Made by a program: the position numbers and the translations under genes. A stretch of 64,000 nt of DNA from Escherichia coli (GTDB lineage: Bacteria; Pseudomonadota; Gammaproteobacteria; Enterobacterales; Enterobacteriaceae). The notes under the pieces were generated by a model, which was not told where the DNA came from, ran no database searches, and was given only the letters and a program-made list of their open reading frames with translations. The DNA is taken from the NCBI RefSeq assembly GCF_041248615.1, contig NZ_CP158426.1. One strand, written 5' to 3'. Shown here piece after piece: positions 1-56,078 of this stretch. The first letter of the stretch is position 1; each line of letters begins with the position of its first letter.

Positions 1-77
1 GCATGGCTATGGATTGATAAATGATATCAAAACGTATCAGCTAGTTTCCACGGTTAGAGAAGATGGCTATTATACTT

Positions 78-107
78 CAGAAACGGAACAACAGCGTTCC
101 GTTTCTG
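78..107. repeat. Perfect 12-bp inverted repeat with 6-nt loop (CAGAAACGGAAC-N6-GTTCCGTTTCTG)
   Basis: Read directly from sequence; lies upstream of the first operon; no clear T-run so not a classical terminator. Confidence 0.5.
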
Positions 108-389
108 ACGGACTGATTCTTCCGTAAATTCAGGTGTAAATCGTGGTGTGCCCATACGCTCCTCCTATGCTCAAACTATAGGGCAGGATCGTCTACCGGG
201 GTGGGGTCAGTCCACCAATGACTGAGAGGTGTCTGTTAAACCCGTGGCGATTCAGACATTACTCTTCCTATGTACACTGGAGTAGATTGAATAATCATAT
301 AATAATCAATCGGTTGAAATCATTTAGGGCTTTTGTATTAATAGTATTGAGATGGTTTGGTCATGGTTCCAGTTCATAAGGAAATAGTT

Positions 390-1442
390 ATGGGAATTAG
401 TGTTCGAGTCTTGCAAGCAAATCATGGTGATTGTTTCTTAGTTAGTTATAAGAGCTCAGATAGTGTTTACAACTTGCTAATTGATGGTGGTAATAGCGCC
501 ACATTTATGTTTGGGGCTCAAGGGCGCTACAGTGGTGAGCTTAAATGTGTACTCGATGATTTGAAAAAAGAAGGTCAGAAAATTGACTTGGTTATCTTAA
601 CCCATATAGATGATGATCATATCGGTGGTTTGCTTAGGGCTTTTGAAACACCAGGTTATCTATGCCAAATGGCTTCTTCTATCTGGTTTAATTCTTCAAG
701 ATTTATCACCAAACATTTTAAGGTTGATGAAATTTCAGACAATGATGTCTGTCTTCAAAGTAACTCAACGCAGACAAGTGCTAGGCAAGGGAAGAAACTG
801 GAAAACTTACTTGATGAAATCAATTGCGAACGGCAACCCATAGTTATTGCGGGGCAGAAGTTTACAAGGGGTCCGTTCACATTCACGATCTTATCCCCTG
901 AAGAAGATAATCTACGTAGCCTTCTTCATAAGTGGCCAGATGAGCCAGATCCGGTTACGACATCCGGTGCTTCAAGGGATTATGGAATGAAATTTGAGGA
1001 TATTTTGTCTAATGATAAATTCCAGAGTGATCAATCTGTTTATAATGGTAGCTCAATTGCTTTCATCCTTGAAGCTGATGGTAAGGCTATGCTCTTTTTG
1101 GGCGATTCACATGATGAAAATATTGTCCGTAATTTACGATCTCTTGGTTTTAATGAAGGTAACAAGCTCAAACTCGACCTCGTGAAAATTTCTCATCATG
1201 GTAGCCAGTATAATACTAGCCCTGAATTTTTGTCGCTCATAGATGCGCAAAACTTCATTATATCCACTAATGGGAGTAAGCACGGACTTCCTGATAAGAG
1301 AACTATTGCACGGATTTTATCTTCAGGAGAAGGCAAAATCGGCTTCAATTATTCGCACATTATCCAGGAGATGCTTCACGAAAATGAGGTTCCATTGTAC
1401 TCTTCTCGCCTGGTAGCATTAAATGGAGAAATTAGGCTATAA
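390..1442 (+). CDS. Metallo-beta-lactamase-fold hydrolase (ComEC/Rec2-like MBL family)
   Basis: ORF track 357..1442; ATG at 390 preceded by AGGAAA; motifs LVILTHIDDDHIGG (variant of HxHxDH) and KISHHGSQYNTS typical of MBL-fold enzymes; AT-rich. Confidence 0.7.
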   Translation: MGISVRVLQANHGDCFLVSYKSSDSVYNLLIDGGNSATFMFGAQGRYSGELKCVLDDLKKEGQKIDLVILTHIDDDHIGGLLRAFETPGYLCQMASSIWFNSSRFITKHFKVDEISDNDVCLQSNSTQTSARQGKKLENLLDEINCERQPIVIAGQKFTRGPFTFTILSPEEDNLRSLLHKWPDEPDPVTTSGASRDYGMKFEDILSNDKFQSDQSVYNGSSIAFILEADGKAMLFLGDSHDENIVRNLRSLGFNEGNKLKLDLVKISHHGSQYNTSPEFLSLIDAQNFIISTNGSKHGLPDKRTIARILSSGEGKIGFNYSHIIQEMLHENEVPLYSSRLVALNGEIRL

Positions 1443-1443
1443 A

Positions 1444-2727
1444 ATGACCGCTTCAAATTTGATGGCTTCTAACGCAGTGATCGTGAACGAGGGCAGTGGT
1501 GTTCTTGTTAATGCGATGACTCAAGATTATTCATACGTACTCACAGCAAAACATGTGTTAGCGAAATCAGGTAGTCAAAATATCGTTACTAATCAATATG
1601 GTAACAGTCTTAGAGTGCTTGATGTATTGGTGGGTCAGGAAGAGCATTGCGACTGTGCTGTAATCAAAATTGAATATGTACCAACTGTTGCTCAGCAGTC
1701 CTTCCCTGCAATAGCATTACCCAATTCGGCTTTGCTAAAGTTTGTTGGTTTTCCGGGAACCGAGAGACTAAGCGCTACCCCGCTGAAAATCTATGATGGG
1801 CATGTAACAGATGTAAGGGAGGGGCTGATTAGCTTCACGATAGAAGGCAGTCCCTCAAAAACCGCAATCGATGGAATGTCTGGCGGTGGAATGTATTACA
1901 TAGTTAATGAACATCCCCTCCTTGTTGGTGTAGAATTTGGGATGGACAGTATTCGTCAAGATCTACAATATGGACGTATACAATGTAAAAGTTTAATTGT
2001 TTTTGAAGAGATAATTAATTTAAACAGTGCTGCTCCAATGGTTCCCGCTTATTTGGAGTGTTTTTCACGCTTAAAAGAATATATCTTCGATTTTAATGTT
2101 GTTGATAAAAATAGAGTTCTGAATCTGAAAAACGCATTAAATATTTTTGCAGATGAACTTATAGACAAAGGTATGCCACCACCATTTGAATTAATGTCCA
2201 AATACAAAACTGATTTGTTAGTAGGTCCATATCAAGTTGACGATGTTAAAAATAAAGAATTATGGGTTGCATATTTTGAATTTCTGATAATTTGCGCAAT
2301 TCTTGATAATGTAAGTATTGCCAATAGTTCTTATATAGAAAGTTTAGAGCGGCGTAGGAGAATTCTTTATACTCCGGATGGAAGTAATTGGGTCGGAAAG
2401 CTTGATGTAATCTTAAAAGTTGCTCGAAAGTTATTAGATAAAGATGGCATAGTAATTGTGGCATCTCCAGAAAATGGAGCCGAATTATTACCGGATGATT
2501 TTGAAGTCGATAGGGTTATAAGGAATATTGCGCGAATCGCTAATTCAGGTCCACTTGCTCCTATCGATCAAGTTGAAAAAGAGATGTATAAGAGTTTTGT
2601 ATTAACGCATCTTGAAGGGCTGAGAAAAAAATGTGTTATAAACAAAGAGAGAATGTATGCAGAAGTTGAAGCTGGCTTAGACCAACTTCAGACGTTTAAG
2701 GAAAGCTTTAATGAATTTATTAAATAA
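1444..2727 (+). CDS. Trypsin-like serine peptidase with uncharacterised C-terminal domain
   Basis: ORF track 1423..2727; ATG at 1444 directly after upstream stop (TAA 1440-1442); candidate triad His (LTAKHV), Asp (CDCAVIKI), Ser (GMSGGGMYY); about 240 aa C-terminal extension of unknown fold. Confidence 0.7.
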   Translation: MTASNLMASNAVIVNEGSGVLVNAMTQDYSYVLTAKHVLAKSGSQNIVTNQYGNSLRVLDVLVGQEEHCDCAVIKIEYVPTVAQQSFPAIALPNSALLKFVGFPGTERLSATPLKIYDGHVTDVREGLISFTIEGSPSKTAIDGMSGGGMYYIVNEHPLLVGVEFGMDSIRQDLQYGRIQCKSLIVFEEIINLNSAAPMVPAYLECFSRLKEYIFDFNVVDKNRVLNLKNALNIFADELIDKGMPPPFELMSKYKTDLLVGPYQVDDVKNKELWVAYFEFLIICAILDNVSIANSSYIESLERRRRILYTPDGSNWVGKLDVILKVARKLLDKDGIVIVASPENGAELLPDDFEVDRVIRNIARIANSGPLAPIDQVEKEMYKSFVLTHLEGLRKKCVINKERMYAEVEAGLDQLQTFKESFNEFIK

Positions 2728-3262
2728 AGAATTTGATTTGGAATTTCTTAAATCTAGATTTTCTGATGCAGATTTCTATTTTTTTGTTTCTAATGATGAC
2801 TCATCTTATATTTCATGCGTAGCATGCTATTGTGAGAGCGCTAATTACGTGGTTGCGAATTGGACAGCGATTCAGAATTATTTATCTGCTTACTACCAAC
2901 CGAAGGATGAATTAGCTCTTTGGAATATATATTTAGTTTTCTTTTGTTCCGAAAAATTACCGATTTGGGATAAGTACCTTATAGATAATGATAAGTATTC
3001 TGTCAGAAAATTAATTATTGACGGGTTAACTACTCTGCCAAGTATTTCCGAAACTGTAACTTTTCTGAACAATCATCTGCTAGGCGCAGACCTAGAATTA
3101 ACTGAAATAGAGGAGAAGAAGGAGATAGAGTTATCATTAATTGAGTATATAAGTGGAACTCCTTTAGATTCAAAGGTTGAGTCGAGAGATGAGCGTATGA
3201 GCAGAATTGATAAAATTATTAATCTAGTGAGTTCAAATAAAAATGAAAATAAAAAAAGTTGA
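2711..3262 (+). CDS. Hypothetical protein, 183 aa, middle gene of candidate operon
   Basis: ORF overlaps upstream gene by 17 nt and downstream gene by 20 nt (translational coupling); no recognisable motif. Confidence 0.5.
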   Translation: MNLLNKEFDLEFLKSRFSDADFYFFVSNDDSSYISCVACYCESANYVVANWTAIQNYLSAYYQPKDELALWNIYLVFFCSEKLPIWDKYLIDNDKYSVRKLIIDGLTTLPSISETVTFLNNHLLGADLELTEIEEKKEIELSLIEYISGTPLDSKVESRDERMSRIDKIINLVSSNKNENKKS

Positions 3263-6200
3263 AATAGAAGGCTTTCGAGCATACAGATTCAAGGAAGATG
3301 GTACTTTCGATTTTACAAATAAAGATGATACGCCATCCAATTTTGTAGCGATCTATGCACCCAATGGCTTTGGAAAAAGTTCATTCTATGATGCGGTTGA
3401 ATGGGCTATTACTCATAATTTAGATAGATTTGCGGGTGAATATAATAAAAAAAATTATGAGCAAGCTGCCAGGAGCACGAAAGAGGACGGTGTTGCACAA
3501 AAAATACTACGTAATAAAGATGTACCAGACAATATTCCTACTCGTGTAACAGTTTTCACTACTTTACCAACTCCATTCGAACAAAGTTTAGGAACAGTTC
3601 GTTCTGATTCTAGAGATATAAGAATCGGCGAGAATAAAAATAAAATCAATGGCTATTTTAGAAAAGTGGTTCTTAGTCAAGATGAAATAGACCGTTTTTT
3701 AAAAGAAGCAAAGCCGCAAGATCGTTATAAGATGTTTATGGAGAGTTTTGGAGGTGAATGGGAAAAGGCGAGACAAGAGCTAACTATACTATTGAATGAC
3801 AATAAGGCGGTTTTGTTAAATCTCGAAAAAAACAAAAATGAACTTCAGGAACAACTAGATCAGCCTGTTGATGCGTCAACATTCATACAATTTAATAAAA
3901 TAGCATCTGAACTTGTAGCAGAAGGTGAAAGTTTACCATTAGTAGATGAAACAACTATAGTTAATACACAGCATGAGCTTTTGGAAAAAATAATCACAAG
4001 AAGTCACGAAATAAATTTTTCCTTAAACAAGAAAAAAATATTGAGAGATTCGATTTCTGAGTATATTTTAAAATTTCCTGATATCAGTTTTCGTACAACC
4101 CAGATTATCGAGAAAAAGAATAGACTAGAAAAAATAAATAAAGGGATAGAAGATGTCGGTCGTTATAAGACATTTCAGTCTACTCTTGAAAAACTGACTA
4201 TCGAAAAGAAAAAGATAAGTCAGAGCTTAAATTTTATAGAAGAATTAGATGGTTTATCCCAAGAGTTTTTAAGCTTGGAATTTAACTTGGAATCAGCTCG
4301 AAAGAAACATAGAGAGATTTCATATAATTATGAAAATGAAAAAACTCTCCTTGATAATTTATTCCAAACAAGAAACCAAAATGATGCTGATTTATCTTCA
4401 ATTGACAAGCGATGCTTATCTATACGTTCTACGTTAGAAAACGCTACGGTTACTTATTCTAATATATCTAATATACAAAATAAAATTTTAAATATAGTTT
4501 CTACGCAAACAGAATTAGAGCACAAACTTAATCAAGTTAGATCCGAATACCAAAAAAACAAATCCGAATTAAACAAAGTATCAGATTTAACAATAACCGC
4601 CAAATCATTACTTTCATCAGACTTAAGTCTAATTGATTTATCTTCAGATTTATTAAAAGAACTAAACAACTTATCGCAAGAACTAAATATATTGGTCCTA
4701 CATGATCAATCAATTCATAACACACAAGAATCTCTTTCTGCACAAATGGGAGTTCACGAACGTCTAATTGCATCGGGCCTTGAGTACTTAAGTTTATGGC
4801 CGACTAATATATGTCCTTTATGTCACAAGCCGCATGACTCTGAGTCCTCTCTTAGAGAACAAGTAACAAATACTGACGTAATATCCATGCTTAGTAAAGA
4901 GAATGCAGCTAAGCTCGAGATATCCTCAAAACGGCGGTCAGAGTTAAATGGCAAGATAGAATCCATCGTACAGAAAGCCCTTGAAATTAAAATGAGTAAA
5001 CTTGAGGTATTAAGTAAAAAGGTCAATCAACAAGGAAATGAGATACATCGAGAAGAACAGCACTATACAGCTCTTTTAGCAGAAAAACAGTCTGTCCAAA
5101 ATCAGTTAAACGAGTTGCAGAAGGCTGTAGCTGGACTAACTAAAGATGAATTATTAGCTCGCTTAGATGCTGAACTTAAAGAATTAGAGGCCAAGAAAAA
5201 TGAAGTGATAAAAAACAAGCTGACCTTGACGAAAAATATTAACGTTAAAAGAACGTTGATTACAGAGTTAAGTGGGGCGATCAATTTACTTAATACGCAA
5301 ATTCATGAAATGATGTCATCATCTAACTATTTAAAAACAAAAGCTTACTCTGAAGAAAATGGCTTGTCATCGGAGTTTTTGAAAGAACATTATGATGATA
5401 AACGCCATTTTTACCTTAAAAATATAAATGGACTCAATTTTGAGATTAATAATATTACCAGCCAATTAAATGATCTTCAGAAAGCTATGATAGCCGATGA
5501 AATGTGGCTGGATTATGAAGAAATGATTTCTGAAAAAGAGAATTTCGAGGATTATATTTCTAAATCAGAAGCGGTTTTACAATCTTATTCATCATTATTA
5601 AAGCAGCATTTTGAACTACCAAAATATGAATCTTTAGTTGAATTGAAAGATTTCCTGATAAGCTCACTTGATAAAGAAACTAGGCTTTATAATGGTCTAG
5701 AGGAACGGCTTGGAAAATATAATTTATTATCAGAACTTTTGAAAACAGCAGAGTCGTTTGTAAAAAGTATTAAGTTGCAGAATGATATTAATGAAACCTT
5801 AGGTCTTATAGAAATAAGAAAAGAAGTTGATTTAGCTCTGACTAAGGAACGAAATCAAGTAATAGAGGAACTTAGAAACTTGATAAAATCTTTCTTTTAT
5901 GAGGAACTCATTAATTCTATTTATAAGAGAATAGATCCACATCCATCACTTAAGAAAGTGGTGTTTCGCCCAGATTTTGACTCATCAGATAAACCTGGTC
6001 TTAATATAGTTGTCAGTGATGAAAAAGGTGATATGGTATCTCCAATATTATTCTTTAGTGCAGCGCAATTAAATATTCTAAGCCTTAGTGTCTTTTTAGC
6101 AAGTGCTTTGCATGCAAAAGATGATAATGGAAATGTAATTGATGTGATTATGATTGATGATCCAATTCAATCAATGGATTCAATTAATATCCTATCCACA

Positions 6201-6380
6201 ATTGATCTTCTTAGAAGTATTACCGTTAGATTCAACAAACAAATAATAATATCAACACATGACGACAATTTCTTTGGCTTGCTCCAACGTAAAATCCCTT
6301 CGGAAATATTGGGTGCCAAGTTTCTTAAATTGGAGAAATTTGGGGTTGTAGTGCCTGTTGATGATTTAAATAATACATGA
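3243..6380 (+). CDS. SMC/Rad50/RecF-like ABC ATPase with long coiled coil and central CxxC motif
   Basis: N-terminal Walker A YAPNGFGKSSFYDAVEWAI; long K/E/L/Q-rich coiled-coil middle; CPLCHKP near centre; C-terminal signature-like FSAAQLNILSLS, Walker B VIMIDDP, His-switch ISTHD. Confidence 0.8.
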   Translation: MKIKKVEIEGFRAYRFKEDGTFDFTNKDDTPSNFVAIYAPNGFGKSSFYDAVEWAITHNLDRFAGEYNKKNYEQAARSTKEDGVAQKILRNKDVPDNIPTRVTVFTTLPTPFEQSLGTVRSDSRDIRIGENKNKINGYFRKVVLSQDEIDRFLKEAKPQDRYKMFMESFGGEWEKARQELTILLNDNKAVLLNLEKNKNELQEQLDQPVDASTFIQFNKIASELVAEGESLPLVDETTIVNTQHELLEKIITRSHEINFSLNKKKILRDSISEYILKFPDISFRTTQIIEKKNRLEKINKGIEDVGRYKTFQSTLEKLTIEKKKISQSLNFIEELDGLSQEFLSLEFNLESARKKHREISYNYENEKTLLDNLFQTRNQNDADLSSIDKRCLSIRSTLENATVTYSNISNIQNKILNIVSTQTELEHKLNQVRSEYQKNKSELNKVSDLTITAKSLLSSDLSLIDLSSDLLKELNNLSQELNILVLHDQSIHNTQESLSAQMGVHERLIASGLEYLSLWPTNICPLCHKPHDSESSLREQVTNTDVISMLSKENAAKLEISSKRRSELNGKIESIVQKALEIKMSKLEVLSKKVNQQGNEIHREEQHYTALLAEKQSVQNQLNELQKAVAGLTKDELLARLDAELKELEAKKNEVIKNKLTLTKNINVKRTLITELSGAINLLNTQIHEMMSSSNYLKTKAYSEENGLSSEFLKEHYDDKRHFYLKNINGLNFEINNITSQLNDLQKAMIADEMWLDYEEMISEKENFEDYISKSEAVLQSYSSLLKQHFELPKYESLVELKDFLISSLDKETRLYNGLEERLGKYNLLSELLKTAESFVKSIKLQNDINETLGLIEIRKEVDLALTKERNQVIEELRNLIKSFFYEELINSIYKRIDPHPSLKKVVFRPDFDSSDKPGLNIVVSDEKGDMVSPILFFSAAQLNILSLSVFLASALHAKDDNGNVIDVIMIDDPIQSMDSINILSTIDLLRSITVRFNKQIIISTHDDNFFGLLQRKIPSEILGAKFLKLEKFGVVVPVDDLNNT

Positions 6381-6406
6381 TTTATTTAGTGTGTTAACCA
6401 TAAAAT

Positions 6407-6440
6407 AAGAACTGGGCCAGTGACGACCCAGTTCTTATTT
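6407..6440 (+). terminator. Hairpin terminator after ATPase gene
   Basis: AAGAACTGGG-N10-CCCAGTTCTT followed by ATTT, 27 nt after stop at 6380. Confidence 0.5.
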
Positions 6441-7696
6441 ATAGGGGAACCTATTTTTATCGCAATAAATTAAGAGCGAAGATATGGTGAAAATTGTTAA
6501 AATATGAATTTTTTTAATTTTTTATCTAAAGCCCCTGTTTTCATTATCGTATAAATCAATCTGGACGATTTGTTCTTCAGGTGCAAGGGTATCCGCAAAC
6601 TAGCGCAGGCTATCACCGCCTATAAGCTCCAGAATATGATCAAGTCCATGCCCTCCTGACAACCCAATCGCCTGTAATGACCATTCAGGAATGATTTGCT
6701 CTTTTGATGACTCAACCACAAATGTATCGAGCTCAGTCTTTGCTTAGAGCAGAATTTGAGCCCAAGACTTCCACTCGTATCATCGTAGGTCAGCGTTTCT
6801 CAGAAAATAACCCATGTAACCACGGCATCCGTCTCCGAATGTTATCCTAGAAACAATATTGAGGGGGGAATGTAGAATCATAACCTCTGAATTAACGTAG
6901 ATTAAATCATTCGATCTAAATCAGAGCATTCATAGTGATGGTACACTCAGCACCAGACAAAGATCTCTAGGGGTTTGTTCTAATAAACATGGCCCTCATT
7001 CCTTCTGGTGAAATTCGGAATCTGATTGCGTAGGATAATTACATCCAGGAATCGGGCTAGCATTACAGCCCCCTAAGGGTGTTGTTTGCAACGGTTCATG
7101 TTTGTCTGAGTAACTATATTCCTGAATGTGTTGCTCCGAATTTACGGATTGCCTTGCAGAAAAGGGCTGTTCTGGCGTTGTGCTTTGAAAGGCGTACACC
7201 TGAGGAGCACAGAGCCACAGGAAGGGCAGTAGGGTGCAGCGGGCGAGTACATTCATATATTCTCCAGACAGAATTCATACCAATTATATGATATGCCAGA
7301 TTGACTCAATAAAGCGTTAACGAAGAACGAAAATATAAGACCAGGTATAGAACTCGACATGCCGATAGTCGCCGGGAAATATCGTGGCCAGATTTTTTGT
7401 TAATGCTCATAGTCAGGCAACAAGGGTCGCTGCAGTAATGACTTCTGAACCTTATAACAAATTTCGGCACGACACTTTTATCATCTTTTTCATAATAAAA
7501 CCTCCGTTTTTGTTTTAATCGTCCTCCGGATGTTTCGGACATTGGATGCCCGTAACATCCGGAGGCTGCGGGTGCGGGCGGCAAAGAGCCCGTGAAGATG
7601 CCCGGAATGAATGGCAAACCCCCTCAGGAATGAAGAAAATACGCAATCAATGCTGGGGTGCTTTGTTGATCACTTTTACTGAAGTACTTTTCTATC

Positions 7697-8416
7697 TCAG
7701 AAGTAGGTTGTCCAGAAAGAGGAAACTGGCATCGCCAGTACCAATGCAGGAAGCATACTGGCTACCGGGAAGACCTTGATACCGGAAATACGCAGGCCGG
7801 TCGCCACCATTAGAACGCCACCCACAGCTGAAAAGTCGGCCTGCATGGCAGGCGTGGTCAGGGGCAATATATATATCGCGCTGTAGGCGAGTGCTAACTG
7901 AATGATAAGCTGGGGGAAAGCGACTAATGCCACGGCGTAACCCAGGGTTGTGGCAAAAATGAGGGCGGTCAGCAAATCCAGGAACGCTTTCGCGATAAGG
8001 ATACTCGAGTCCCCGGTCATGCCTTCGTGCATCGCACCAAAAATACCGGTGCCACTGGCACAAAAAAGGACGATGATCGCCACATAGTTTTGTAAAAACT
8101 GCGCCTGTGAGTCTTTGTCTCCGGGATCGCTTTTCACGACGAGCTCCACCAACCCACGGGCTTGTCCGCCCAGGTGGCTTATCCCTTTTTCCAGATAGCA
8201 GAGCTCGCCCACCAGTGTGCCGAGAAGGACCGATAGAACCATGACGGGCATATGGCTGACACTTGTCACAAGGACGATCCCCATACACAGGGAGGCAGCA
8301 CCAAAAATGAGCGGCATTGAGGTACGTAACCTTTCAGGTAGACGTGAGCTAATGATGGCTCCTGCCATCCCGCCGATCACGACGGCAGAGCCGTTGAACC
8401 ATGGGCCTGTAATCAT
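7697..8416 (-). CDS. DUF554 family inner-membrane protein (YqgA-like)
   Basis: Hydrophobic 239-aa ORF; recalled similarity to E. coli YqgA including NYVAIIVLFCASGTGIFG and ILPLTTP; overlaps UbiX-like stop by 4 nt. Confidence 0.7.
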   Translation of the reverse strand: MITGPWFNGSAVVIGGMAGAIISSRLPERLRTSMPLIFGAASLCMGIVLVTSVSHMPVMVLSVLLGTLVGELCYLEKGISHLGGQARGLVELVVKSDPGDKDSQAQFLQNYVAIIVLFCASGTGIFGAMHEGMTGDSSILIAKAFLDLLTALIFATTLGYAVALVAFPQLIIQLALAYSAIYILPLTTPAMQADFSAVGGVLMVATGLRISGIKVFPVASMLPALVLAMPVSSFWTTYF

Positions 8417-9027
8417 AGCGATTTACTCCTGTTATTCAGGTTGGGAGTTTCACCCCAGCGCGGCAATGTGTCGCAATCAAGGTCGAGTAAACTCAGCGCC
8501 CGCGCAACACTATGAGCGAAGATGTTCTCAGTACTTGCAGGGCGTGCATACCAGGCAGGTACGGGTGGAAAAATGATGCCGCCGGTTTCGGTAACCTGAA
8601 GCATGTTACGAAGGTGCCCGGTATGCAGCGGCGTTTCCCGTACCATCAGAACCAGCCTCCGGCGCTCTTTCAGGGTCACATCGGCTGCCCGCACCAGCAA
8701 ACTGTTGGTTAAGCCCGCCGCAACAGCGGCGAGGGTGTTCATAGAGCAGGGGACAATCAACATCCCGGATGCCCTGAACGAACCGCTGGCGATGTCGGCT
8801 GCAATATCATCAAAGGGATAAATTACATCAGCCAGCTTATGAACGTCGTCTTCTGACAAAGTGGTTTCCAGACTGCGGGTCAGATGAGCGGCAGGAGAAA
8901 TCACAACGTGACTTTCCACGTTAAGTTGTCGCAGATAACGCAGGGCCTGCACTCCATATAAAAAACCGGATGCACCACTGATCCCAATGATGACGCGCTT
9001 GCGAGGAGAACATTCAGATGTCGACAT
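8413..9027 (-). CDS. UbiX/Pad1-family flavin prenyltransferase
   Basis: N-terminal VIIGISGASGFLYG motif typical of UbiX; 204 aa; directly downstream of UbiD-like gene. Confidence 0.85.
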   Translation of the reverse strand: MSTSECSPRKRVIIGISGASGFLYGVQALRYLRQLNVESHVVISPAAHLTRSLETTLSEDDVHKLADVIYPFDDIAADIASGSFRASGMLIVPCSMNTLAAVAAGLTNSLLVRAADVTLKERRRLVLMVRETPLHTGHLRNMLQVTETGGIIFPPVPAWYARPASTENIFAHSVARALSLLDLDCDTLPRWGETPNLNNRSKSL

Positions 9028-9037
9028 TATGGCGTCC

Positions 9038-10522
9038 TCAGTACTTGAAGTTATCCGGGAGGAAACGACTGATCTCGACCTCCATGAATTCGCTGCGGCG
9101 AAACTGGCCTTTCATCGTGAACGGAACGGTACAGTCGAAAATAGTTTTACAGGCGATCCCGTGGTCGCGGACGGAGTAACTAAAAGCCGGGTCAGAGGAC
9201 GGATCGAGGGGATGGCACCTTACGCCGGGTATGAACACCGTGCTGATATCCCCCTGATAGCGTGTCGTCATTGCCCATATCACGTCATTGAGATCGAAAA
9301 TATCCACATCGTCATCAACCAGAATCACATGCTTGAGTTCCGAGAATGCGGAGAAGGCCAGAAGAGCCGCCTGGCGCTGACGACCTTCATCGTTTGGCAG
9401 ACGTTTTTTCACCTGCAATACGGCAAGATATTTTCCGGTCCCGGGTGACGGGCAGTGAACATTTTGCACAAAGCCGGGAAGGGCGCGCTCCACCAGTTGC
9501 AGAATACTGGCCTCGGTGGGGATCCCTGCCATATTGGTATGCTCGTCACTTGGACCAATGCAGGTCTGTAGAATTGGGTGACGGCGGTGGGTGATGGCTT
9601 TCACTTTTATCACTGGCACCATTTGCTGTGCCTGTCCGGTATAGCCGGGGAATTCCGGCATGGCTTTACCACTGTTGGTATTTTGATCCTCCCTGACCCG
9701 ATAGTTAGGAATGAGTTCCCCCTCGATAACGACTTCGGCGTTCGCAATGGCCCGGGCATTCACGGTCAGACACTGGCACAGCTCAACAGGCTGTTTACGC
9801 AAGCTCCCTGCCACTGACAGTTCGTCAAAACCAAGTGGAGTTGTGGGCGGTTCGAAGCAGGCACCGATTTCAATGGCTGGGTCAACACCAATGCTGATCG
9901 AGATGGGAAGTGGGGCCCCATCTTCCTCTGCTTTCTGACGGAACAAATCCAGATGCCGACCGGGAACGAAGTACATGGATATTTCATCCCTGTTTTGCAC
10001 GCACAGTCGGTGAATAGTGATGTCATGCTCGCCGGTATGTGGATCGGCGGCGTAGCACATACCGAGAGTGAAGTAAGGACCGGCATCCTCCGGCGTATTC
10101 GTGGGTGCTGGCAGGATATTGAGGATACTGAAATCCGGATCGGATGCCAGATGGACTACTTCCTGACAGACGGCATTTTCCTGCGGAATAACGACAGGAC
10201 TTATCGGGGTGCTTACCGCGTCTTTCAGTAAAAAGGCCAGCTTATCGGGTGTGGTATCCAGTAGCCGGGCCACGCGTTTTCGCGAGGCGAGAAGACCTAT
10301 CAGCACTCGCATATCGGTATAGCCTTTAATCCGGTTAAAGAGCATGGCTGGACCGATACGAGTCGGACGCATGACCGTACCGTGTGCCCCAATGTAGCGG
10401 TACACCCCTGACAGTTCTGCACTTGGATCAACGGGTTCATCGGTTTCGATAAGCTCATCATCAAACTTGCGCAGTACGGCCAGCGCACTGCGTAGGTCAG
10501 TCACTTTTTGTGTTTGAGACAT
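9038..10522 (-). CDS. UbiD-family (prFMN-dependent) decarboxylase
   Basis: 494-aa ORF with UbiD-like size and sequence character; paired with UbiX-like gene as in non-oxidative aromatic acid decarboxylase operons. Confidence 0.8.
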   Translation of the reverse strand: MSQTQKVTDLRSALAVLRKFDDELIETDEPVDPSAELSGVYRYIGAHGTVMRPTRIGPAMLFNRIKGYTDMRVLIGLLASRKRVARLLDTTPDKLAFLLKDAVSTPISPVVIPQENAVCQEVVHLASDPDFSILNILPAPTNTPEDAGPYFTLGMCYAADPHTGEHDITIHRLCVQNRDEISMYFVPGRHLDLFRQKAEEDGAPLPISISIGVDPAIEIGACFEPPTTPLGFDELSVAGSLRKQPVELCQCLTVNARAIANAEVVIEGELIPNYRVREDQNTNSGKAMPEFPGYTGQAQQMVPVIKVKAITHRRHPILQTCIGPSDEHTNMAGIPTEASILQLVERALPGFVQNVHCPSPGTGKYLAVLQVKKRLPNDEGRQRQAALLAFSAFSELKHVILVDDDVDIFDLNDVIWAMTTRYQGDISTVFIPGVRCHPLDPSSDPAFSYSVRDHGIACKTIFDCTVPFTMKGQFRRSEFMEVEISRFLPDNFKY

Positions 10523-10651
10523 TACGTTTTCCTCAGTAAGTCGCCGGGAGACAGCATGCCCGGTGTGCTTTTATCTTCATCCTGCAGGCAATCACAGGAC
10601 GAGCCGTTACATCACTGACAGTATGTGAGGCAACATAAATCCCCGTCTAAT

Positions 10652-10675
10652 CACATTAACGACGTTTTTAATGTG
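10652..10675. promoter_or_regulatory. Interrupted palindrome CACATTAA-N8-TTAATGTG, candidate LysR-type regulator binding site
   Basis: Located in divergent intergenic region between the UbiD-like operon and the LysR gene; dyad of the kind used by LTTRs. Confidence 0.4.
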
Positions 10676-10710
10676 GGATTGTTATCGAAAAATAGTGATT
10701 GGAGGAACGT

Positions 10711-11592
10711 GTGGACTATCGGTATTTGCATGCATTTGTGGTGCTTGCCAGAGAACTGCATTTTGGAAAAGCCGCACTGCGGCTCAACATCACGCAGCCA
10801 GCCTTAAGCCGTCAGATTAGAGTGCTGGAAGATCAGCTTGGCATGGTGCTATTTACGCGTGATCGTCGTCATGTGGCGCTGACTGTGGAAGGAACTCAGC
10901 TTGCAGCGGAGGCGCGGAGCGCCGTCAGTCATTACGAAAAAATGCTGAGCCGTGCGAGTAGCCTTCGAAAAGGCTATAAAGGACAACTCATACTGGGTTA
11001 TGTCGGATCTTCCATTCTTGATCCCGCCCTGACACGGTTAATCACCTGTTTTCGCGAGACTAAACCGGATGTTGAGATTGTTATTGAGGAGCACAACGTT
11101 GACGAACAGCTCACCCTCCTGCTCGACCATCAACTGGATATGGGGCTGCTCCGATCGCCTGTTCCGCATTTTGCCAACCTGGACTACGTGGATATCGCCA
11201 CCAGGTCACTCATCGCCGCAGTACCGCACACGCATCCGCAGGCAGGAGTCGGTAAAATAGAGCTGGAGACGTTGTCCGGGGATACATTTATGATCCAGAA
11301 AGATCCGCCCGGGGTCGGGCTAGGCTGGTCTGCATTACATGCCTGTGAGATGGCCAGTTTTGTCCCACCCAAAATCTATTTTACTCGCGATGTTGCGGTG
11401 GCTATTGGCATGGTGTCGATGGGAATAGGAGTTACGCTGGTGCCAGAAACCCAGCGTTCTGTAACGTTGCCTAATGTCTGCTACTGCCTGCTGCACGATC
11501 CCGAGGTCACAACGACCTTAACGCTTTGCTGGCCGAAATTCAGGAAAAGCAGGGAATTGATAGAGTTTGTACGCTCTTTAACGCTTGGTTGA
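10711..11592 (+). CDS. LysR-family transcriptional regulator
   Basis: N-terminal HTH LHFGKAALRLNITQPALSRQIRVLEDQLG; GTG at 10711 with GGAGG 5 nt upstream (ORF track starts at TTG 10699); divergent from decarboxylase operon. Confidence 0.85.
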   Translation: MDYRYLHAFVVLARELHFGKAALRLNITQPALSRQIRVLEDQLGMVLFTRDRRHVALTVEGTQLAAEARSAVSHYEKMLSRASSLRKGYKGQLILGYVGSSILDPALTRLITCFRETKPDVEIVIEEHNVDEQLTLLLDHQLDMGLLRSPVPHFANLDYVDIATRSLIAAVPHTHPQAGVGKIELETLSGDTFMIQKDPPGVGLGWSALHACEMASFVPPKIYFTRDVAVAIGMVSMGIGVTLVPETQRSVTLPNVCYCLLHDPEVTTTLTLCWPKFRKSRELIEFVRSLTLG

Positions 11593-12133
11593 ATCTTAAG
11601 AAGCTGCAGTTGAGTCATAGCCAGCGATCAAAATTGAGAAGACAAAACCGGGGAGAGGTGCCCGCAGTTTCTGCCCCAGCTCCCATCTTCAGGAAGATGT
11701 GTTTCAGGAATGCATTCGTGATGCTGGGGATAGCGGCAAGACGATTTTCTCATCGGGTAACTCTGCGGTATCGGAACAGTTGACGACGGCAGGGTGGTGA
11801 ATGGGAACCTCAGGATGAAGCGCTCGGGCAAGAGGGATGGACTGTGCTGAAGAGAACACTGACAGAACGAGCATGATGCTTGCAAAAAGGGGACTCTGGA
11901 TATTCATTGTTTATCTCCTGATGATATTCATCGCTCCAGAGAATACGCTTGCCACTCTTTTTATTTGTTTTCCTGAATTAAAAATGCCCGGTTTTATGTG
12001 GTTCTTCCGTAAACGTTATTACATTAATTAACATCTAGTTTCTATCTCCGAAATGAGGTAAAAAAATAATTGTCGTGGTTTTTATCAAACAAATTTACCG
12101 GCAGCTCAGATCCGAACTAATACCTGGAAATTC

Positions 12134-17212: not shown

Positions 17213-17490
17213 TCATTAGAGTGAAAAGTAAATATTAGTAAGGCACTGGTAAAAATGTAGACACTATCAGTGCCTTAGTAGTTATCCCTCTGGATGGTTT
17301 TTTGACAATAATTTCCGTTTCTGGCACGGAACGGACAGAAAGCAGGGCCACCAAATCTCTCACGAGCCAAAAACCTAAATTATGATCTGACAGATACATG
17401 TATCAATGAAACTGTCGCTGTCAGATCAATTACGCCTTACTATCTGAAAATTATTTGATTTTCTGCATCGTGCATTCAAATTAACAATGT

Positions 17491-18342
17491 TCAGGAGGCA
17501 TAAACTGAAAGGAGTTCTTTAGCTGCCAATTGACCAAGTGCGTTGGCTGCAAAAGGACTGTCACCTGTCAGTACCTTACGATCTTTGTATACGCTTCCTT
17601 TAATATCATCATTAACAATATTCATCCCCATTTGCTTAAGTGCATCGCCAAAATACCATGTGAGATGGCCCGGCATATAACCAATGTCAGGCGTCTGCTT
17701 ATCAGCTGAATCAGGGAAAGCGCAAATAGAATACTCTTTTAGAGGGTTTTCACCATTGCGCAGCGAAAGGAATGCTGCTGGGCCATGGCAAAGGGATATG
17801 ACGAAGCGGTCATTGTCCATGAACCAGCGAAGAGTATCGGCTACTGCGCTGCTTTCTGGCAGCCCAATCAGTGCGCCGTGGCCACCAGGAATAAACACGG
17901 CAGCATATTCACTTTGCTTGTTCAGGCTATTCAATACATCAGACAATTTTTCAGGATTTTGGAACTTGTCTCTATACCGGCTGAAAAATGGCATAACTTT
18001 CTCATCCTTGTGCGGCATGGCCCAGTATTCGAACTTTGTCATGTAACCTGAGATTGTCGCAATGTCAAAATCAAAACCAGCAGCATGCAGGTGATACATT
18101 GGAATAAGCGTTTCAACAGGATGGTTTCCCGTTGAGAACAGAGCCCCGCTATCAGTCATCAGGTAACGCTCATCCGCAGCGATGACCAGCACCTTCTTCC
18201 CTCCCATGCACTGTTTGGGATAGTCGTAGTCACTAAGGTCAGATACGGGGCTGGTAAACTGACTAAGGGAATAGTCAGAGGGGAAAAATGCGTTTTCTTC
18301 AGCATGATCCACTTTCGGATGTTTACTTTTATCATTTGTCAT
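17491..18342 (-). CDS. hchA: Hsp31 / glyoxalase III (DJ-1/PfpI family), divergent HchA homologue
   Basis: 283-aa product from MTNDKSKHPKVDHAEENAFFPSDYSLSQ; strong but not identical similarity to recalled E. coli HchA (KFEYWAMPHKDEKVMPFF, FVISLCHGPAAFL, TGDSPFAANALG); track ORF 17491..18504 extends upstream into the IS2 flank. Confidence 0.85.
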   Translation of the reverse strand: MTNDKSKHPKVDHAEENAFFPSDYSLSQFTSPVSDLSDYDYPKQCMGGKKVLVIAADERYLMTDSGALFSTGNHPVETLIPMYHLHAAGFDFDIATISGYMTKFEYWAMPHKDEKVMPFFSRYRDKFQNPEKLSDVLNSLNKQSEYAAVFIPGGHGALIGLPESSAVADTLRWFMDNDRFVISLCHGPAAFLSLRNGENPLKEYSICAFPDSADKQTPDIGYMPGHLTWYFGDALKQMGMNIVNDDIKGSVYKDRKVLTGDSPFAANALGQLAAKELLSVYAS

Positions 18343-18514
18343 TACGTATTCCTCGTTGATTGGTGTTAACTCTCTTTCTCGGGCCTGAATTCGCCTGTTA
18401 TATGGGCGACCAGGATAGCCTGATAGACTGGCCCCATGAATCTCCAGACAACCAATATCACTTAAATAAGTGATAGTCTTAATACTAGTTTTTAGACTAG
18501 TCATTGGAGAGCAG

Positions 18515-18880
18515 ATGATTGATGTCTTAGGACCGGAGAAACGCAGACGGCGTACTACACAGGAAAAGATCGCTATTGTTCAGCAGAGTTTTGAACCGGG
18601 AATGAAGGTCTCCCTTGTTGCCCGGCAACACGGTGTGGCAGCCAGCCAGTTATTTCTCTGGCGCAAGCAATACCAGGAGGGAAGTCTTACTGCTGTGGCC
18701 GCAGGAGAGCAGGTCGTTCCTGCCTCTGAACTTGCTGCTGCCATGAAGCAGATTAAAGAACTCCAGCGCCTGCTCGGCAAAAAAACGATGGAAAATGAAC
18801 TCCTTAAAGAAGCCGTTGAATACGGGCGTGCAAAAAAGTGGATAGCGCACGCGCCCTTATTGCCCGGGGATGGGGAGTAA
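18515..18880 (+). CDS. insC: IS2 transposase OrfA (InsC)
   Basis: [29 protein letters not shown]... matches recalled IS2 InsC; ATG at 18515 inside track ORF 18470..18880. Confidence 0.9.
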
Positions 18881-19743
18881 GCTTAGTCAGCCGTTGTCTC
18901 CGGGTGTCGCGTGCGCAGTTGCACGTAATTCTCAGACGAACCGATGACTGGAAAGATGGTCGCCGCAGCCGTCACTCAGATGATACGGATGTGCTTCTCC
19001 GTATACACCATGTTATCGGAGAGCTGCCCACGTATGGTTATCGTCGGGTATGGGCGCTGCTTCGCAGACAGGCCGAACTTGATGGTACGCCTGCGATCAA
19101 TGCCAAACGTGTTTACCGGATCATGCGCCAGAATGCGCTGTTGCTTGAGCGAAAAACCGCTGTACCGCCATCGAAACGGGCACATACTGGCAAAGTGGCC
19201 GTGAAAGAAAGCAATCAACGATGGTGCTCTGACGGGTTCGAGTTCCGCTGTGATAACGGAGAAAAACTGCGAGTCACGTTCGCGCTGGACTGCTGTGACC
19301 GTGAGGCACTGCACTGGGCAGTCACTACGGGCGGCTTCGACAGTGAAACAGTACAGGACGTCATGCTGGGAGCGGTGGAACGCCGCTTCGGCAACGAGCT
19401 TCCGGCGTCTCCAGTAGAGTGGCTGACGGATAATGGTTCATGCTACCGGGCTAATGAAACACGGCAGTTTGCCCGGATATTGGGGCTTGAACCGAAGAAC
19501 ACGGCGGTGCGGAGTCCGGAGAGTAACGGCATAGCAGAGAGCTTCGTGAAAACGATAAAGCGTGACTACATCAGTATCATGCCTAAACCAGACGGGTTAA
19601 CGGCAGCAAAGAACCTTGCAGAGGCGTTCGAGCATTATAACGAATGGCATCCGCATAGTGCACTGGGTTATCGCTCGCCACGGGAATATCTGCGGCAGCA
19701 GGCCAGTAATGGGTTAAGTGATAACAGGTGTCTGGAAATATAG
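18838..19743 (+). CDS. insD: IS2 transposase OrfB (InsD), DDE integrase domain
   Basis: Overlaps insC 3' end in a different frame as expected for IS3-family frameshifting; sequence matches recalled IS2 OrfB. Confidence 0.9.
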
Positions 19744-20342
19744 GGGCAAATCCACCTGAGTAGTGGTAGTCTCTTCCATACGGTTGCGTACGTATCTCAG
19801 GTGGTTTGCTACAGCATGCGGAGATAGTCCCAGTAAACCAAGAACCACTTTAGCTTTTGATGACTCATACCCCCAATCTGAACACTCCTTTAATACCCAT
19901 ATTGCCGAATACAGGAATCATAATGTCGTGCAAAATACCACTAACAAAATTATGACAATTTAATAACTTTGAACGTGGCTTTGTGTTCCAGTTTTATGCC
20001 AGGAGAAATCATTCGATATCTTTATAAAATATCGTTCTAACTGTAAGTAATTAATATGATTTTTCTCATAAAAAAACTTAAAATCAGTTAACTTCAGCCC
20101 GGAATATGCGTTCACTGAGCGGCCTCTTCATGAACGAAACCGAGAAAAAATAGGCTACAGTCACAACCACACTGTAGAGCAACTTCTCTCACGTGCTGTT
20201 TCAGAGAATAGATCTTCTTGCATCTGAAGAATGGTATCCAGAGCTATCCTGATCACCCCTGAATGCAATAGTTGCGTATACTAGGCGCATGACAGAATCA
20301 TAAAATGAGAGCTATCCCTTATTATCATGACTTCAGTAAAAT

Positions 20343-21098
20343 TTAAATTTGCATTGAGGTAGCGATATCGAGACGTTGCAGTTCGTCAATCGTGTAGATG
20401 CGGAACACATTCCTGTGGCGGGTTTCCAGTGGGATGTGTTGATGATTCACGATGACGTACTGGATGCTGTCAAACAGCCGTTCAAGACCGAGTTTTTTTT
20501 GCGGGTCTGGCACAATATAAAAAACGTAGATCCAGTCTTTACGCGTTCGGGCCAGTAAATGACTGGCTATGATCGACTGGTAACGGGCTTTGGTTTTCAG
20601 ATGGCGCTCGGTCTCGATGGCGATCACCGTGCCGCTGGGGAGGGCAATTAGCCCGTCCGGGCGGTGACTGACCTGATAACGACTCAGGAAAGTTGTGCGA
20701 TCGCCATGTATCCAGCCGCATGCGCCTTTTTTTTCGAGGATGATCCGCGCCATCTGATTATCAAGGTGATGTTCCAGCGTCCAGCCTGTGAGTTTTGAAG
20801 GCTCAAACCGGGCCGGGAAAATTTCATCATCAGGCTGTATTACGACCGCCAGCCCGTCGTTGGTTATTCCCCACAATGAAATTTTCTTCGTACGTGATAC
20901 CAGGACGTGTTTTTGTATTAACCCCATTCCCTCAACTTTTGAAAGCAGGGAATACAGTGATTTATGATCCCTGAAGCCGAACAGCAGCATCAGTGTTGTA
21001 AAATCACTGTACGTTTCTTCTTTCAGGAAATTCAGCAGTCGTATTATCTTCTCGCGATGTCGGGTCTGGCGCTCGCGGTATGCGGTGATAAGCATCAT
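20343..21098 (-). CDS. Hypothetical mobilization protein, possible MobC-like small relaxase
   Basis: 251-aa ORF 8 nt downstream of coupling-protein gene; function inferred from position only. Confidence 0.35.
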   Translation of the reverse strand: MMLITAYRERQTRHREKIIRLLNFLKEETYSDFTTLMLLFGFRDHKSLYSLLSKVEGMGLIQKHVLVSRTKKISLWGITNDGLAVVIQPDDEIFPARFEPSKLTGWTLEHHLDNQMARIILEKKGACGWIHGDRTTFLSRYQVSHRPDGLIALPSGTVIAIETERHLKTKARYQSIIASHLLARTRKDWIYVFYIVPDPQKKLGLERLFDSIQYVIVNHQHIPLETRHRNVFRIYTIDELQRLDIATSMQI

Positions 21099-21106: not shown

Positions 21107-23032
21107 CTAAAAGTTCAGTAACGAGGGATGATCCTCTTTACCTGCACCTGCACCTGCACCTGCACCTGCACTTGTTGTTGTGTGTTTCTCGTCCGGCTTG
21201 TCAAAAAAGAGATCGGGTTGTGTTGTCGTGATAACTGATGTTGATGACGGTCCGGATGACATTTCTTCCTCGTCAAAATTCAGGGCAATGTTGACTCTTG
21301 CGGCGGTGGCGGCAACAGCGGGCGATACGGCACAGATCGCCAGTTCCCTTTTTTTAACCCTGATGGGAGAAATTAGTGAAGCAGAGGGGAGGGCTTTGGT
21401 GGTGAATATAAAACTGACAAAATCAGGCAGGTTCAGCACCATATTACTGTCGATAAAGAAACGCTCGGCCTGCCTGATGGTGCGTTCACTATCGATAGTC
21501 TCTGTCAGCACCGCATCTGTTTTGGCTTTGCGGACTTCGTCATCGACTAATATGGTGCCTGACATTCTTGCCACCCAGTCAGCGGTATCAGGGTCCATGA
21601 CACGATAAACCAGCTTGAATTTGGCATTCTCCACAACTGCACCCACCACGGCATCGCTTTTCAAATCCGCCGGGCAATCTTTTAAATCGGCAATGGATTG
21701 GTGGTCCATAATAATGTGTACACCTTTATCCCGTGCCGCACCTAAGCCTTCCAGCGCAGGCTTGGATAAATGGTATTTCAGTTCGGAAAGGTAAATAGCA
21801 ATAGGGCGGGGTGTGTGGTTTACCCGATCGCGCCTTTCTGCCAGCTGGTACAGGCGAACCAGCAGCATGCGCTGAGCGGTAATAATTTTGCTGTTGCGCA
21901 TCGAGCCAATCACATAGCAGCAACCACCGTTATCAAATATTGTATTGAGGGAAAATCCTGCCGGTGCATTGATGGCATTGAGTAAGGCCAGCTCCTCAAT
22001 TTTCCCGAAAAAGGCTTTTATCTTATCAGCGATACTTTGGACGTATTCCCCGTTATACACATCCCGAATGGTTGAGGTCGTATTACGGGCGACAAATTGT
22101 GCAGCTATTCGGGCTGCTTTGCGATCGTCAATGCGATAAAAGTCAGACTCTTGTCCTTTCTCTGCCAGACTGAAACCCGCGACAAAAAGTTCTTCCAGTT
22201 CATCAGCGGTGATATCGTTAATCAGGTTTAGCTGGTATGCCTGTTTCCTCAGGTCAATTAGGGCAAAGGATTTCCCTGCATCCTCGCAGGCTTTCCGGTA
22301 AAGGTGTGGGGCCCACTCATCATCTTTGGGGTCCATAACAAATACGCCTTCACCGGCCAAAATACTCTGATAAAGTAATATCCCGGTGGCCACCCCTTTA
22401 CCGGCCCCCGTGGTCCCGATGATATCGGCATGTTGTTTTTGCCAGTCTTTTAACGGCAGGTACATCGGCTGTTTCATTCTGTTCATGCCGATAAAAATAC
22501 CTTTACTCAGGTTAATATAATCCTCCGGGTTATAGTGCAATGTTTCCGGTAGCAGCGATTTCACCGTTCGGACATCAGTACGTAATTCCCTTTCCAGAGT
22601 GGTTTTTCTGACGAACCGACTTTTTACTTTATCGAGTTCAGGTGTTAACACCCTGCGCAGAAGAATATGGAAAACAAAACCGGCTGCGGTAGAGGTAATC
22701 AGTATCAGCCAGGAGAGGACAGTATTGCTGGTGGCTATCTTTATTCGGTATATCCATTGAAATAATTCGTTCACCACGGGCGCTATTGTGCCAAACAAAA
22801 AGCACAGTATGGAAAAAACTATCACCAGCTTTTTCCATAAAGGGGCTTTGAGTCGTTCATCGCTTTTCATCGACGCGAAGAATGGCATGGTCAGCCCTGA
22901 GAATAGCGCCAAAATAGGTTGATGCTGGTGCATAAAAACGAGCAGTCCCAGCATGCCGTCCACTATCGGTGATAGTGAAACGATCAGCTTATTTAACACC
23001 ATAATGCTTCCTTTATCGGCCATTCGCCCCAC
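21107..23032 (-). CDS. Type IV coupling protein (VirD4/TraD/MobB-like)
   Basis: N-terminal TM helices; Walker A GTTGAGKGVATG; 641 aa; C-terminal Gly-Ala repeat. Confidence 0.85.
   Translation of the reverse strand: MGRMADKGSIMVLNKLIVSLSPIVDGMLGLLVFMHQHQPILALFSGLTMPFFASMKSDERLKAPLWKKLVIVFSILCFLFGTIAPVVNELFQWIYRIKIATSNTVLSWLILITSTAAGFVFHILLRRVLTPELDKVKSRFVRKTTLERELRTDVRTVKSLLPETLHYNPEDYINLSKGIFIGMNRMKQPMYLPLKDWQKQHADIIGTTGAGKGVATGILLYQSILAGEGVFVMDPKDDEWAPHLYRKACEDAGKSFALIDLRKQAYQLNLINDITADELEELFVAGFSLAEKGQESDFYRIDDRKAARIAAQFVARNTTSTIRDVYNGEYVQSIADKIKAFFGKIEELALLNAINAPAGFSLNTIFDNGGCCYVIGSMRNSKIITAQRMLLVRLYQLAERRDRVNHTPRPIAIYLSELKYHLSKPALEGLGAARDKGVHIIMDHQSIADLKDCPADLKSDAVVGAVVENAKFKLVYRVMDPDTADWVARMSGTILVDDEVRKAKTDAVLTETIDSERTIRQAERFFIDSNMVLNLPDFVSFIFTTKALPSASLISPIRVKKRELAICAVSPAVAATAARVNIALNFDEEEMSSGPSSTSVITTTQPDLFFDKPDEKHTTTSAGAGAGAGAGKEDHPSLLNF
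21137..21166. repeat. Hexanucleotide tandem repeat (CACCTG)x5 within coupling protein C-terminus
   Basis: Read directly; encodes (Ala-Gly)n on the minus strand; in-frame repeat. Confidence 0.85.
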
Positions 23033-43943: not shown

Positions 43944-43986
43944 TAAAGTAATTCGGCGAATAGGTTTTTATTTTTAAAGGTTAGTT

Positions 43987-49855: not shown

Positions 49856-49931
49856 TGGCTCCTCTGACTGGACTCGAACCAGTGACATACGGATTAACAG
49901 TCCGCCGTTCTACCGACTGAACTACAGAGGA
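49856..49931 (-). tRNA. asnT: tRNA-Asn (anticodon GUU)
   Basis: Reverse complement reads TCCTCTGTAGTTCAGTCGGTAGAACGGCGGACTGTTAATCCGTATGTCACTGGTTCGAGTCCAGTCAGAGGAGCCA; matches recalled E. coli tRNA-Asn; next to mtfA as at the E. coli asnT locus. Confidence 0.95.
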
Positions 49932-50922: not shown

Positions 50923-51012
50923 GGAGAGATGCCGGAGCGGCTGAACGGACCGGTCTCGAAAACCGGAGTGGGGGCAACTCCACCGGGGGTTCAAATCCCC
51001 CTCTCTCCGCCA
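50923..51012 (+). tRNA. serU: tRNA-Ser (anticodon CGA)
   Basis: 90-nt GGAGAGATGCCGGAGCGGCTGAACGGACCGGTCTCGAAAACCGG...CCCCCTCTCTCCGCCA with long variable arm. Confidence 0.9.
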
Positions 51013-51064
51013 AAATTCAATCACTTACACATCATTAAGTCAGTGACAAAAATCACACTTGGAA

Positions 51065-52090: not shown

Positions 52091-52293
52091 CAGATCGCAC
52101 CAAAATTCGGCTCTACCTCGCGTGGTGGTAAAGTTTTATTGCAGGTAAATAGATCCCGGCTGACAATCGGTTTGCCACTACGATTGGTATAGAACGGAAG
52201 CCCGTTTTCCATTAACCATTTTCGCTGGTGGCTTGCATATTTGCAGCCCGTTAATATTAGCAATTCATCTTCGGTTAAAAATAAGCTGCTCAT
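52090..52293 (-). CDS. xis: Excisionase-like protein
   Basis: 67 aa; immediately upstream of integrase with 1-nt overlap. Confidence 0.65.
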   Translation of the reverse strand: MSSLFLTEDELLILTGCKYASHQRKWLMENGLPFYTNRSGKPIVSRDLFTCNKTLPPREVEPNFGAI

Positions 52294-56049: not shown

Positions 56050-56078
56050 ACTGATTCCTCGCGGTGCTACTTCGCTTA

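Follow-up and report, generated by a model that had tools for sequence, protein, structure and literature searches.

The hchA-like gene carried by a conjugative element (ICE) of Escherichia coli NRZ14408 has a complete copy of the insertion sequence IS2 directly in front of it, and this arrangement raises the question whether the insertion is real and recent, what kind of DNA it has entered and what it would do to the expression of its neighbour. The initial annotation had read positions 17491-19759 as a recent transposition into the promoter region of an acquired hchA copy, with a probable change of its expression; these limits do enclose exactly the gene, the spacer, IS2 and the right-hand repeat (Table 1). 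All positions refer to the 64,000-nucleotide stretch of DNA analysed here (the window), which matches the chromosome of NRZ14408 (NZ_LT599825.1) at 100%, position x of the window corresponding to x + 2,083,671 of that record. All components of the locus are of known kinds: an IS2, a member of the HchA/Hsp31 class, a pseudogene derived from the TIGR03541 family and an ICE integrated at a tRNA gene. The transposase and hchA are already annotated in RefSeq, and it is the regulator pseudogene alone which is not.

Table 1 Features of the hchA-IS2-mobC locus, in window coordinates
Feature	Position	Strand	Basis
hchA-like gene, 283 aa + stop; glyoxalase III/Hsp31 xenolog, ICE cargo	17491..18342	-	ORF; RefSeq hchA
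23-nt spacer with ribosome-binding site GAGGAA, from regulator stop to hchA ATG	18343..18365	-	kept in all relatives
Regulator pseudogene, 3' end (residues 221-238 + TAA 18366-18368), severed by IS2	18366..18423	-	tblastn; DNA alignment
Target-site duplication CCTGA, left copy, 5 bp	18419..18423		sequence; alignment to empty sites
IS2	18424..19754	+	100% match to the copy at record position 100990; Pfam domains in OrfA and OrfB
IS2 IRL, 42 bp, hchA-facing end	18424..18465	+	imperfect inverted repeat with 19714-19754
IS2 orfA, 121 aa	18515..18880	+	ORF; Pfam HTH_Tnp_1
IS2 orfB, DDE integrase core	18838..19743	+	ORF; Pfam rve, rve_3, HTH_21
IS2 IRR, 41 bp, towards mobC, away from hchA	19714..19754	+	inverted-repeat comparison with IRL
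Target-site duplication CCTGA, right copy, 5 bp	19755..19759		sequence; alignment to empty sites
Regulator pseudogene, remainder (equivalents of residues 1-221)	19760..20247	-	tblastn; DNA alignment; TIGR03541
Region homologous to the DNA in front of intact regulator genes (putative promoter/operator)	20248..20342	-	alignments
mobC, MobC-family replication-relaxation protein	20343..21098	-	NCBIfam NF041423 E=6.7e-109; RefSeq

The IS2 insertion and its empty sites

Reading of the sequence together with a script check identified a complete IS2 of the IS3 family, 1,331 bp long, which starts with TAGACTGGCCCC and ends with GGGGCAAATCCA. On re-inspection the 5-bp repeat CCTGA was found on both of its flanks, so that the earlier description of an intact element with an intact target duplication held; a match of 5 nt between the flanks is expected by chance with a probability of about 0.001. 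The terminal repeats are imperfect (33-nt arms, 76% complementary), and position 13 of IRL is an A here instead of the C of the reference (CCCCATGAA as compared to CCCCCTGAA). Published work gives IRL as 42 bp and IRR as 41 bp and describes an A6G motif as the -1 frameshift site of IS2 (PMC3299598); the corresponding window lies in orfA at 18832-18838 (AAAAAAG), where the two reading frames overlap, and RefSeq labels the transposase 'programmed frameshift'. Size, 42/41-bp ends, orfA/orfB arrangement with A6G, HTH and DDE (rve) domains and the 5-bp duplication are thus the same as in known IS2, no structural difference being found. IS2 copies in 4,059 E. coli genomes match the element at 95-100% identity (1,012 records at 99% or more, 5,859 at 95-99%). 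In the genome of NRZ14408 IS2 occupies 13 places, and the copy at record position 100990 is 100% identical to the present one over the full length. The first base of the hchA ATG (18342) and the first base of IS2 (18424) differ by 82 in coordinate, the distance noted initially, which leaves 81 nt between them.

A megablast search with the left flank across 5,426 complete E. coli genomes detected the locus in five of them, and one of these five assemblies carries IS2. The locus is free of IS2 in 2018-06-4CC (two assemblies), YF-1 and A38, where hchA is followed by mobC after a gap of 664 nt. The comparison with IS-free alleles, which had been suggested as a check, could therefore be made directly: in the alignments all three strains have a single CCTGA at the exact junction and an otherwise continuous sequence. 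Once positions 18424-19759 are removed, the window aligns with the element of 2018-06-4CC in one piece of 11,664 bp, with 99.87% identity, 8 mismatches and 2 gaps. We regard the empty sites in the sister strains as the decisive evidence that the insertion is real. Copies of IS elements are a frequent source of misassembly and IS2 is found in only one of the five assemblies, which might suggest an assembly artefact or else an ancestral feature precisely excised in the other strains; however, the NRZ14408 record is a complete chromosome, the perfect 5-bp duplication contrasts with a single copy in 2018-06-4CC, YF-1 and A38, which are independent strains and of which A38 has a more divergent element (96.5% identity in hchA), and precise excision of an IS3-family element in three lineages would be far less parsimonious than one insertion. 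Both of these explanations are, in our judgement, highly improbable. The IS2 at this locus is a simple and strain-specific insertion, and its recent date, as initially proposed, follows from the identical copy elsewhere in the genome and from the hchA sequence of the NRZ14408 ICE, which is identical to the IS-free allele. Most probably, a single IS2 copy has transposed into the cargo DNA of the ICE by the copy-out/paste-in route of the IS3 family, duplicating CCTGA in the process.

The acquired hchA gene

The element carrying the gene is an ICE integrated at a tRNA gene: a tRNA-Asn gene (49856-49931) is adjoined by a tyrosine integrase gene (48423-49694), and according to the RefSeq annotation the element contains VirB2-B11 secretion genes, the gene of a coupling protein (21107-23032) and that of MobC. 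The left end of the ICE is situated outside the window. In 2018-06-4CC the same ICE occupies a different tRNA-Asn copy, which is consistent with its mobility. Of the backbone genes of the transfer module, mobC is the one that comes last before the cargo, to which hchA belongs. The canonical hchA of NRZ14408 is intact, adjoins hprS and lies about 80 kb from the ICE copy. As the initial annotation had it, the protein encoded on the ICE is related to the E. coli one without being identical to it, the two hchA genes of this genome sharing 75% of their amino acids and 70.9% of their nucleotides. The closest database proteins are two of metagenomic origin (93 and 87%), followed by those of Hafnia (84%) and Serratia plymuthica (81%). 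The position of the gene in ICE cargo, its divergence from the canonical gene and the named relatives in Hafnia and Serratia together support a horizontally acquired copy, which is the origin supposed before.

Compared with E. coli HchA/Hsp31 (PDB 1N57, 1PV2, 1ONS, 1IZY), the ICE protein has the same length of 283 aa and aligns without gaps; the full-length matches to 1PV2 and 1N57 have E values of about 1e-150 (residues 1-282 against 1PV2: E=6e-150), and the Pfam domain DJ-1_PfpI is recognised with 33.7 bits at a cutoff of 26.6. The catalytic triad Cys185-His186-Asp214 is kept, and so are Glu77 and His155. What sets the ICE copy apart from the E. coli gene is its location on a conjugative element, away from hprS, and the metal-site residues of its product. 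We take the 2-His-1-carboxylate metal site of Hsp31 to be formed by His86, Glu91 and His123; in the ICE protein His86 is retained, but Glu91 is replaced by Asp and His123 by Tyr. To our knowledge, this site is not generally held to be necessary for glyoxalase activity, and for this reason the altered residues still allow the protein to be placed in the HchA/Hsp31 class, in which it fits by full-length homology including the DJ-1/PfpI domain and by the triad.

The region between mobC and hchA

In the translated IS-free spacer an open stretch of 71 codons ends 23 nt before the ATG of hchA, and the resulting fragment of 71 aa matches the NCBIfam model TIGR03541, reg_near_HchA (E=4.8e-6, 26.3 bits, profile positions 192-231 of 232), which describes PA1136-family autoinducer-binding LuxR-type regulators and has a curated cutoff of 215.6 bits. 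Intact regulators of 238-240 aa, which score 246-249 bits against this cutoff, are encoded in metagenomic contigs and in one assembly each of Serratia plymuthica and E. coli, in each case with the stop 22 nt before hchA. Compared by tblastn with the IS-free ICE allele, these intact proteins match three segments of it, which are collinear but lie each in a different frame (residues 16-40, 40-132 and 188-238). In the window they correspond to positions 20219-20145 (residues 16-40), 20146-19871 (residues 40-132), 19857-19756 (residues 188-221) and 18422-18369 (residues 221-238). The DNA of the intact regulator genes aligns with the ICE from end to end, that is, from the upstream palindrome to the hchA ATG, and the alignment reveals the loss of the start codon, small indels and frameshifts as well as an internal deletion of 152 nt, which has taken out the linker and the beginning of the HTH.

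By homology, the "intergenic" region between mobC and hchA is a decayed LuxR-type regulator pseudogene, in A38 and 2018-06-4CC alike. It shares with the intact TIGR03541 members the position directly upstream of hchA and the strand, its stop being 23 nt from hchA in place of 22 nt. Unlike the intact proteins (about 232-240 aa, with an autoinducer-binding and a GerE domain), its frame is broken in three places besides the internal deletion, and the remnant is a pseudogene derived from the TIGR03541 family and not a member protein. In NRZ14408 it is additionally cut in two by IS2, at the equivalent of residue 221 within the recognition-helix part of the HTH remnant. The earlier view that IS2 had inserted into the promoter region thus needs to be amended: the element does lie upstream of hchA, but this is not a plain promoter region, the site being inside the 3' remnant of the regulator pseudogene. 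Because the IS-free alleles already carry a dead regulator gene, IS2 has not inactivated a working one.

Upstream of the regulator, the intact units have the palindrome AGGGGAnnTCCCT and, after it, -10-like sequences. All decayed versions have retained a degenerate form of this region, among them the ICE, where the palindrome reads AAGGGATAGCTCTC (20307-20320); such retention of the regulator upstream region would be expected if it were still driving hchA. When relatives of this hchA from four mutually unrelated genomic contexts are compared, the common sequence in front of the ATG extends over no more than about 60 nt; a further common block lies about 325 nt farther upstream in the ICE. The regulator is absent from the plasmid-borne hchA contexts in Enterobacter, Klebsiella and Pantoea. 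Our search of the literature for PA1136 returned incidental mentions only.

In contrast to the coding region, the sequence upstream of the ICE hchA is not homologous to the promoter region of the K-12 gene, the alignment showing nothing in common beyond the ribosome-binding site, and what has been published on the promoter of hchA in K-12 is therefore not transferable. Conserved RNA structure was not found in the hchA leader (only 3 weak pairs, -2 kcal/mol), nor did Rfam give a match in the region.

Consequences for hchA expression

In the intact relatives, hchA is probably co-transcribed with the regulator from the promoter upstream of the latter, as the regulator stops only 22 nt before hchA. 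This promoter-like region is retained on the ICE at 20248-20342; IS2 now puts 1.3 kb between it and hchA, with the transposase genes antisense to hchA, and the insertion would reduce expression of the hchA-like gene by polarity rather than activate it. IS2 would be polar in this orientation in view of the classical gal/IS2 literature; our own literature search on the classical orientation I/II polarity of IS2 brought up nothing usable. What makes us lean towards a polar reduction, to which we give slightly better than even chances, is that hchA faces the left end of IS2, from which no outward promoter is known, and that there is no consensus promoter in the intervening 81 nt: a sigma-70 scan of window positions 17300-20400 returned no minus-strand site upstream of hchA, within the 81 nt or reading outward from IRL. 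On the basis of the sequence, we infer such a reduction in preference to a neutral or an activating effect.

It should also be noted that two observations weaken the case for a polar effect. The sigma-70 consensus scan found no promoter-like site in the IS-free upstream region of hchA either, and the retained 81 nt contain a weak -10-like TATAAC at -59 to -54, with which an internal promoter is possible. Two motifs of this spacer, the TATAAC and a sigma-32-like GCCCATAT, were considered and rejected as promoters, given that neither is conserved as such in the relatives and that the stretch is regulator coding sequence; both are left as weak possibilities.

If the 81 nt left in front of the ICE hchA contained a promoter of this gene, for instance at this TATAAC, IS2 would replace only sequence upstream of the -35 and the insertion would be neutral. 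Such an arrangement would agree with the conservation of the proximal 57-60 nt in every genomic context of the hchA lineage and with purifying selection on the gene despite the heavy decay upstream of it. The dN/dS of the ICE hchA is 0.077 (compared with the A38 ICE allele), which indicates that it is maintained as a functional gene and, by implication, that it functioned without its regulator. The conservation of the proximal stretch, however, is accounted for by the fact that it codes for the C-terminus of the regulator and contains the ribosome-binding site; the TATAAC does not have the final T, a highly conserved base, several relatives match poorly at its position and no promoter-like site came out of the scan. 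We consider a neutral insertion unlikely, though it deserves more credit than any of the other alternatives.

The insertion could also activate the gene, similar to silent operons activated by IS elements: IS2 might have moved an AT-rich silencing region of the H-NS type away from it, or outward or divergent transcription might come from the left end of IS2. An AT-rich stretch (29% GC, 19900-20099), whose distance from the insertion site is about 150-350 nt on the upstream side in alleles free of IS2, has indeed been displaced by IS2 (53% GC), and an ATG within IS2 (18504) is in frame with hchA. Binding of H-NS is speculative, though, and the in-frame ORF is purely mechanical, with no evident ribosome-binding site. 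Activation of neighbouring genes is documented for IS elements, among them IS2 (PMC9330008; PMC12095673). In the fusion promoters formed by IS2 at ampC, acrEF and neoR, an outward -35 in IRR is used (PMC9330008), and the native promoter of IS2, which is contained in IRL, points inward (PMC3299598). The present insertion resembles these cases in that IS2 is located tens of bases upstream of the gene, but here it is IRL that abuts the gene, the transposase genes read away from it and no hybrid -35/-10 pair is seen. Activation is disfavoured because the promoter in IRL points inward, the -35 used in fusions is in the IRR facing mobC and neither the 81 nt nor the outward-reading end of IRL offers a consensus promoter; we find it improbable.

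Should polarity indeed reduce expression of the ICE hchA, the cost to NRZ14408 should be small, because the canonical gene about 80 kb away is intact. The situation differs in 2018-06-4CC and YF-1, in which the canonical hchA is deleted and the ICE copy is the sole hchA. One could imagine that the ICE gene is a functional xenolog without its LuxR-type regulator, which replaced the canonical gene in some lineages, while IS2 is shutting down the redundant ICE copy in NRZ14408, the whole being a snapshot of xenologous displacement in two directions; we regard this as doubtful.

The insertion itself is a real but ordinary strain-specific event and carries little weight beyond NRZ14408, for which it provides a clean and datable case of IS2 activity in a clinical isolate associated with mcr-1 and KPC-2. 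For this ICE family, the annotation of the region between mobC and hchA as intergenic can be corrected to that of a decayed regulator gene, as the alignments indicate. If the ICE hchA aids tolerance of methylglyoxal or glycation stress, its expression could differ between NRZ14408 and the sister strains, and such a difference would matter most where the ICE copy is the sole hchA.

Copies of hchA and the encoded protein

Comparing the strains, we observed that the canonical hchA, the chromosomal copy next to hprS, is absent from 2018-06-4CC and YF-1, both of which carry the IS-free version of the ICE, the conjugative element integrated at tRNA-Asn (NZ_AP021893.1, 1895415-1896276, locus L017, and the comparison rows for both strains); neither strain thus has an hchA other than the one on the ICE. 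A truncated porin pseudogene directly follows hprS in 2018-06-4CC. Both copies are present in NRZ14408 and A38. The HchA of the ICE (17491-18342) has kept the catalytic triad, and residues 91 and 123 are changed (E91D, H123Y), two positions of the 2-His-1-carboxylate metal site of Hsp31. The metal site of this HchA lineage may have been lost.

IS2 junctions

The insertion of IS2 mechanically created an ORF of 337 codons (17491-18504, minus strand), which starts at an ATG within the left end of the element and is in frame with hchA, adding 54 codons; since neither a ribosome-binding site nor a promoter is evident for it, this ORF probably is meaningless. At the right junction, the tip of IS2 together with the duplicated target (19749-19760) forms a 12-nt inverted repeat of 92% complementarity with flanking DNA 35 nt apart (19796-19807). 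Its CCTGAG/CTCAGG portion was already found in the empty site, before IS2, and the repeat may have arisen by chance or may be a feature of target structure.

Further features of the ICE and the neighbouring prophage

The type IV coupling protein shows a small length polymorphism in its C-terminal Ala-Gly dipeptide repeat, (AG)5 in NRZ14408 versus (AG)4 in 2018-06-4CC. An 'ABC-three component system' gene set (window 1-8000; L001, 1591-7581), including a ComEC/Rec2-like protein and an AAA ATPase of 1,045 aa, probably represents an anti-phage defence module; in 2018-06-4CC (L006, 22677-25053) it is interrupted by ISApl1, the element associated with mcr-1 mobilisation. Just past mtfA, a lambdoid prophage (50923-64000) is inserted at tRNA-Ser(cga), and dicB also is located on it.

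Window coordinates of additional features
Feature	Position	Strand	Context
3' end of coupling-protein gene, with Ala-Gly repeat	21107-21200	minus	ICE
DicF RNA	55438-55489		lambdoid prophage
hokD/sok locus	61662-61836		lambdoid prophage

Regulator decay and origin of the cargo

The LuxR-type regulator beside hchA (TIGR03541, reg_near_HchA) has decayed independently in several lineages (L023, L014, L011), and the deletions differ between a second Serratia strain, the 93% HchA relative and Hafnia (L023 being Serratia plymuthica CP068771.1, 2607-3001); hchA is intact in every one of them. Loss of this regulator appears to be recurrent.

Two further cargo modules of the ICE (8853-11597 and 43000-45722) directly adjoin related hchA genes in other bacteria (L008, L011, L013). 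The LysR-UbiD-UbiX module shares 88% DNA identity with a metagenomic contig also encoding an 87% HchA, and the FecCD-type ABC transporter module 72% identity with Hafnia contigs also encoding an 84% HchA. This suggests that a chromosomal segment surrounding hchA was taken up as cargo and rearranged afterwards.
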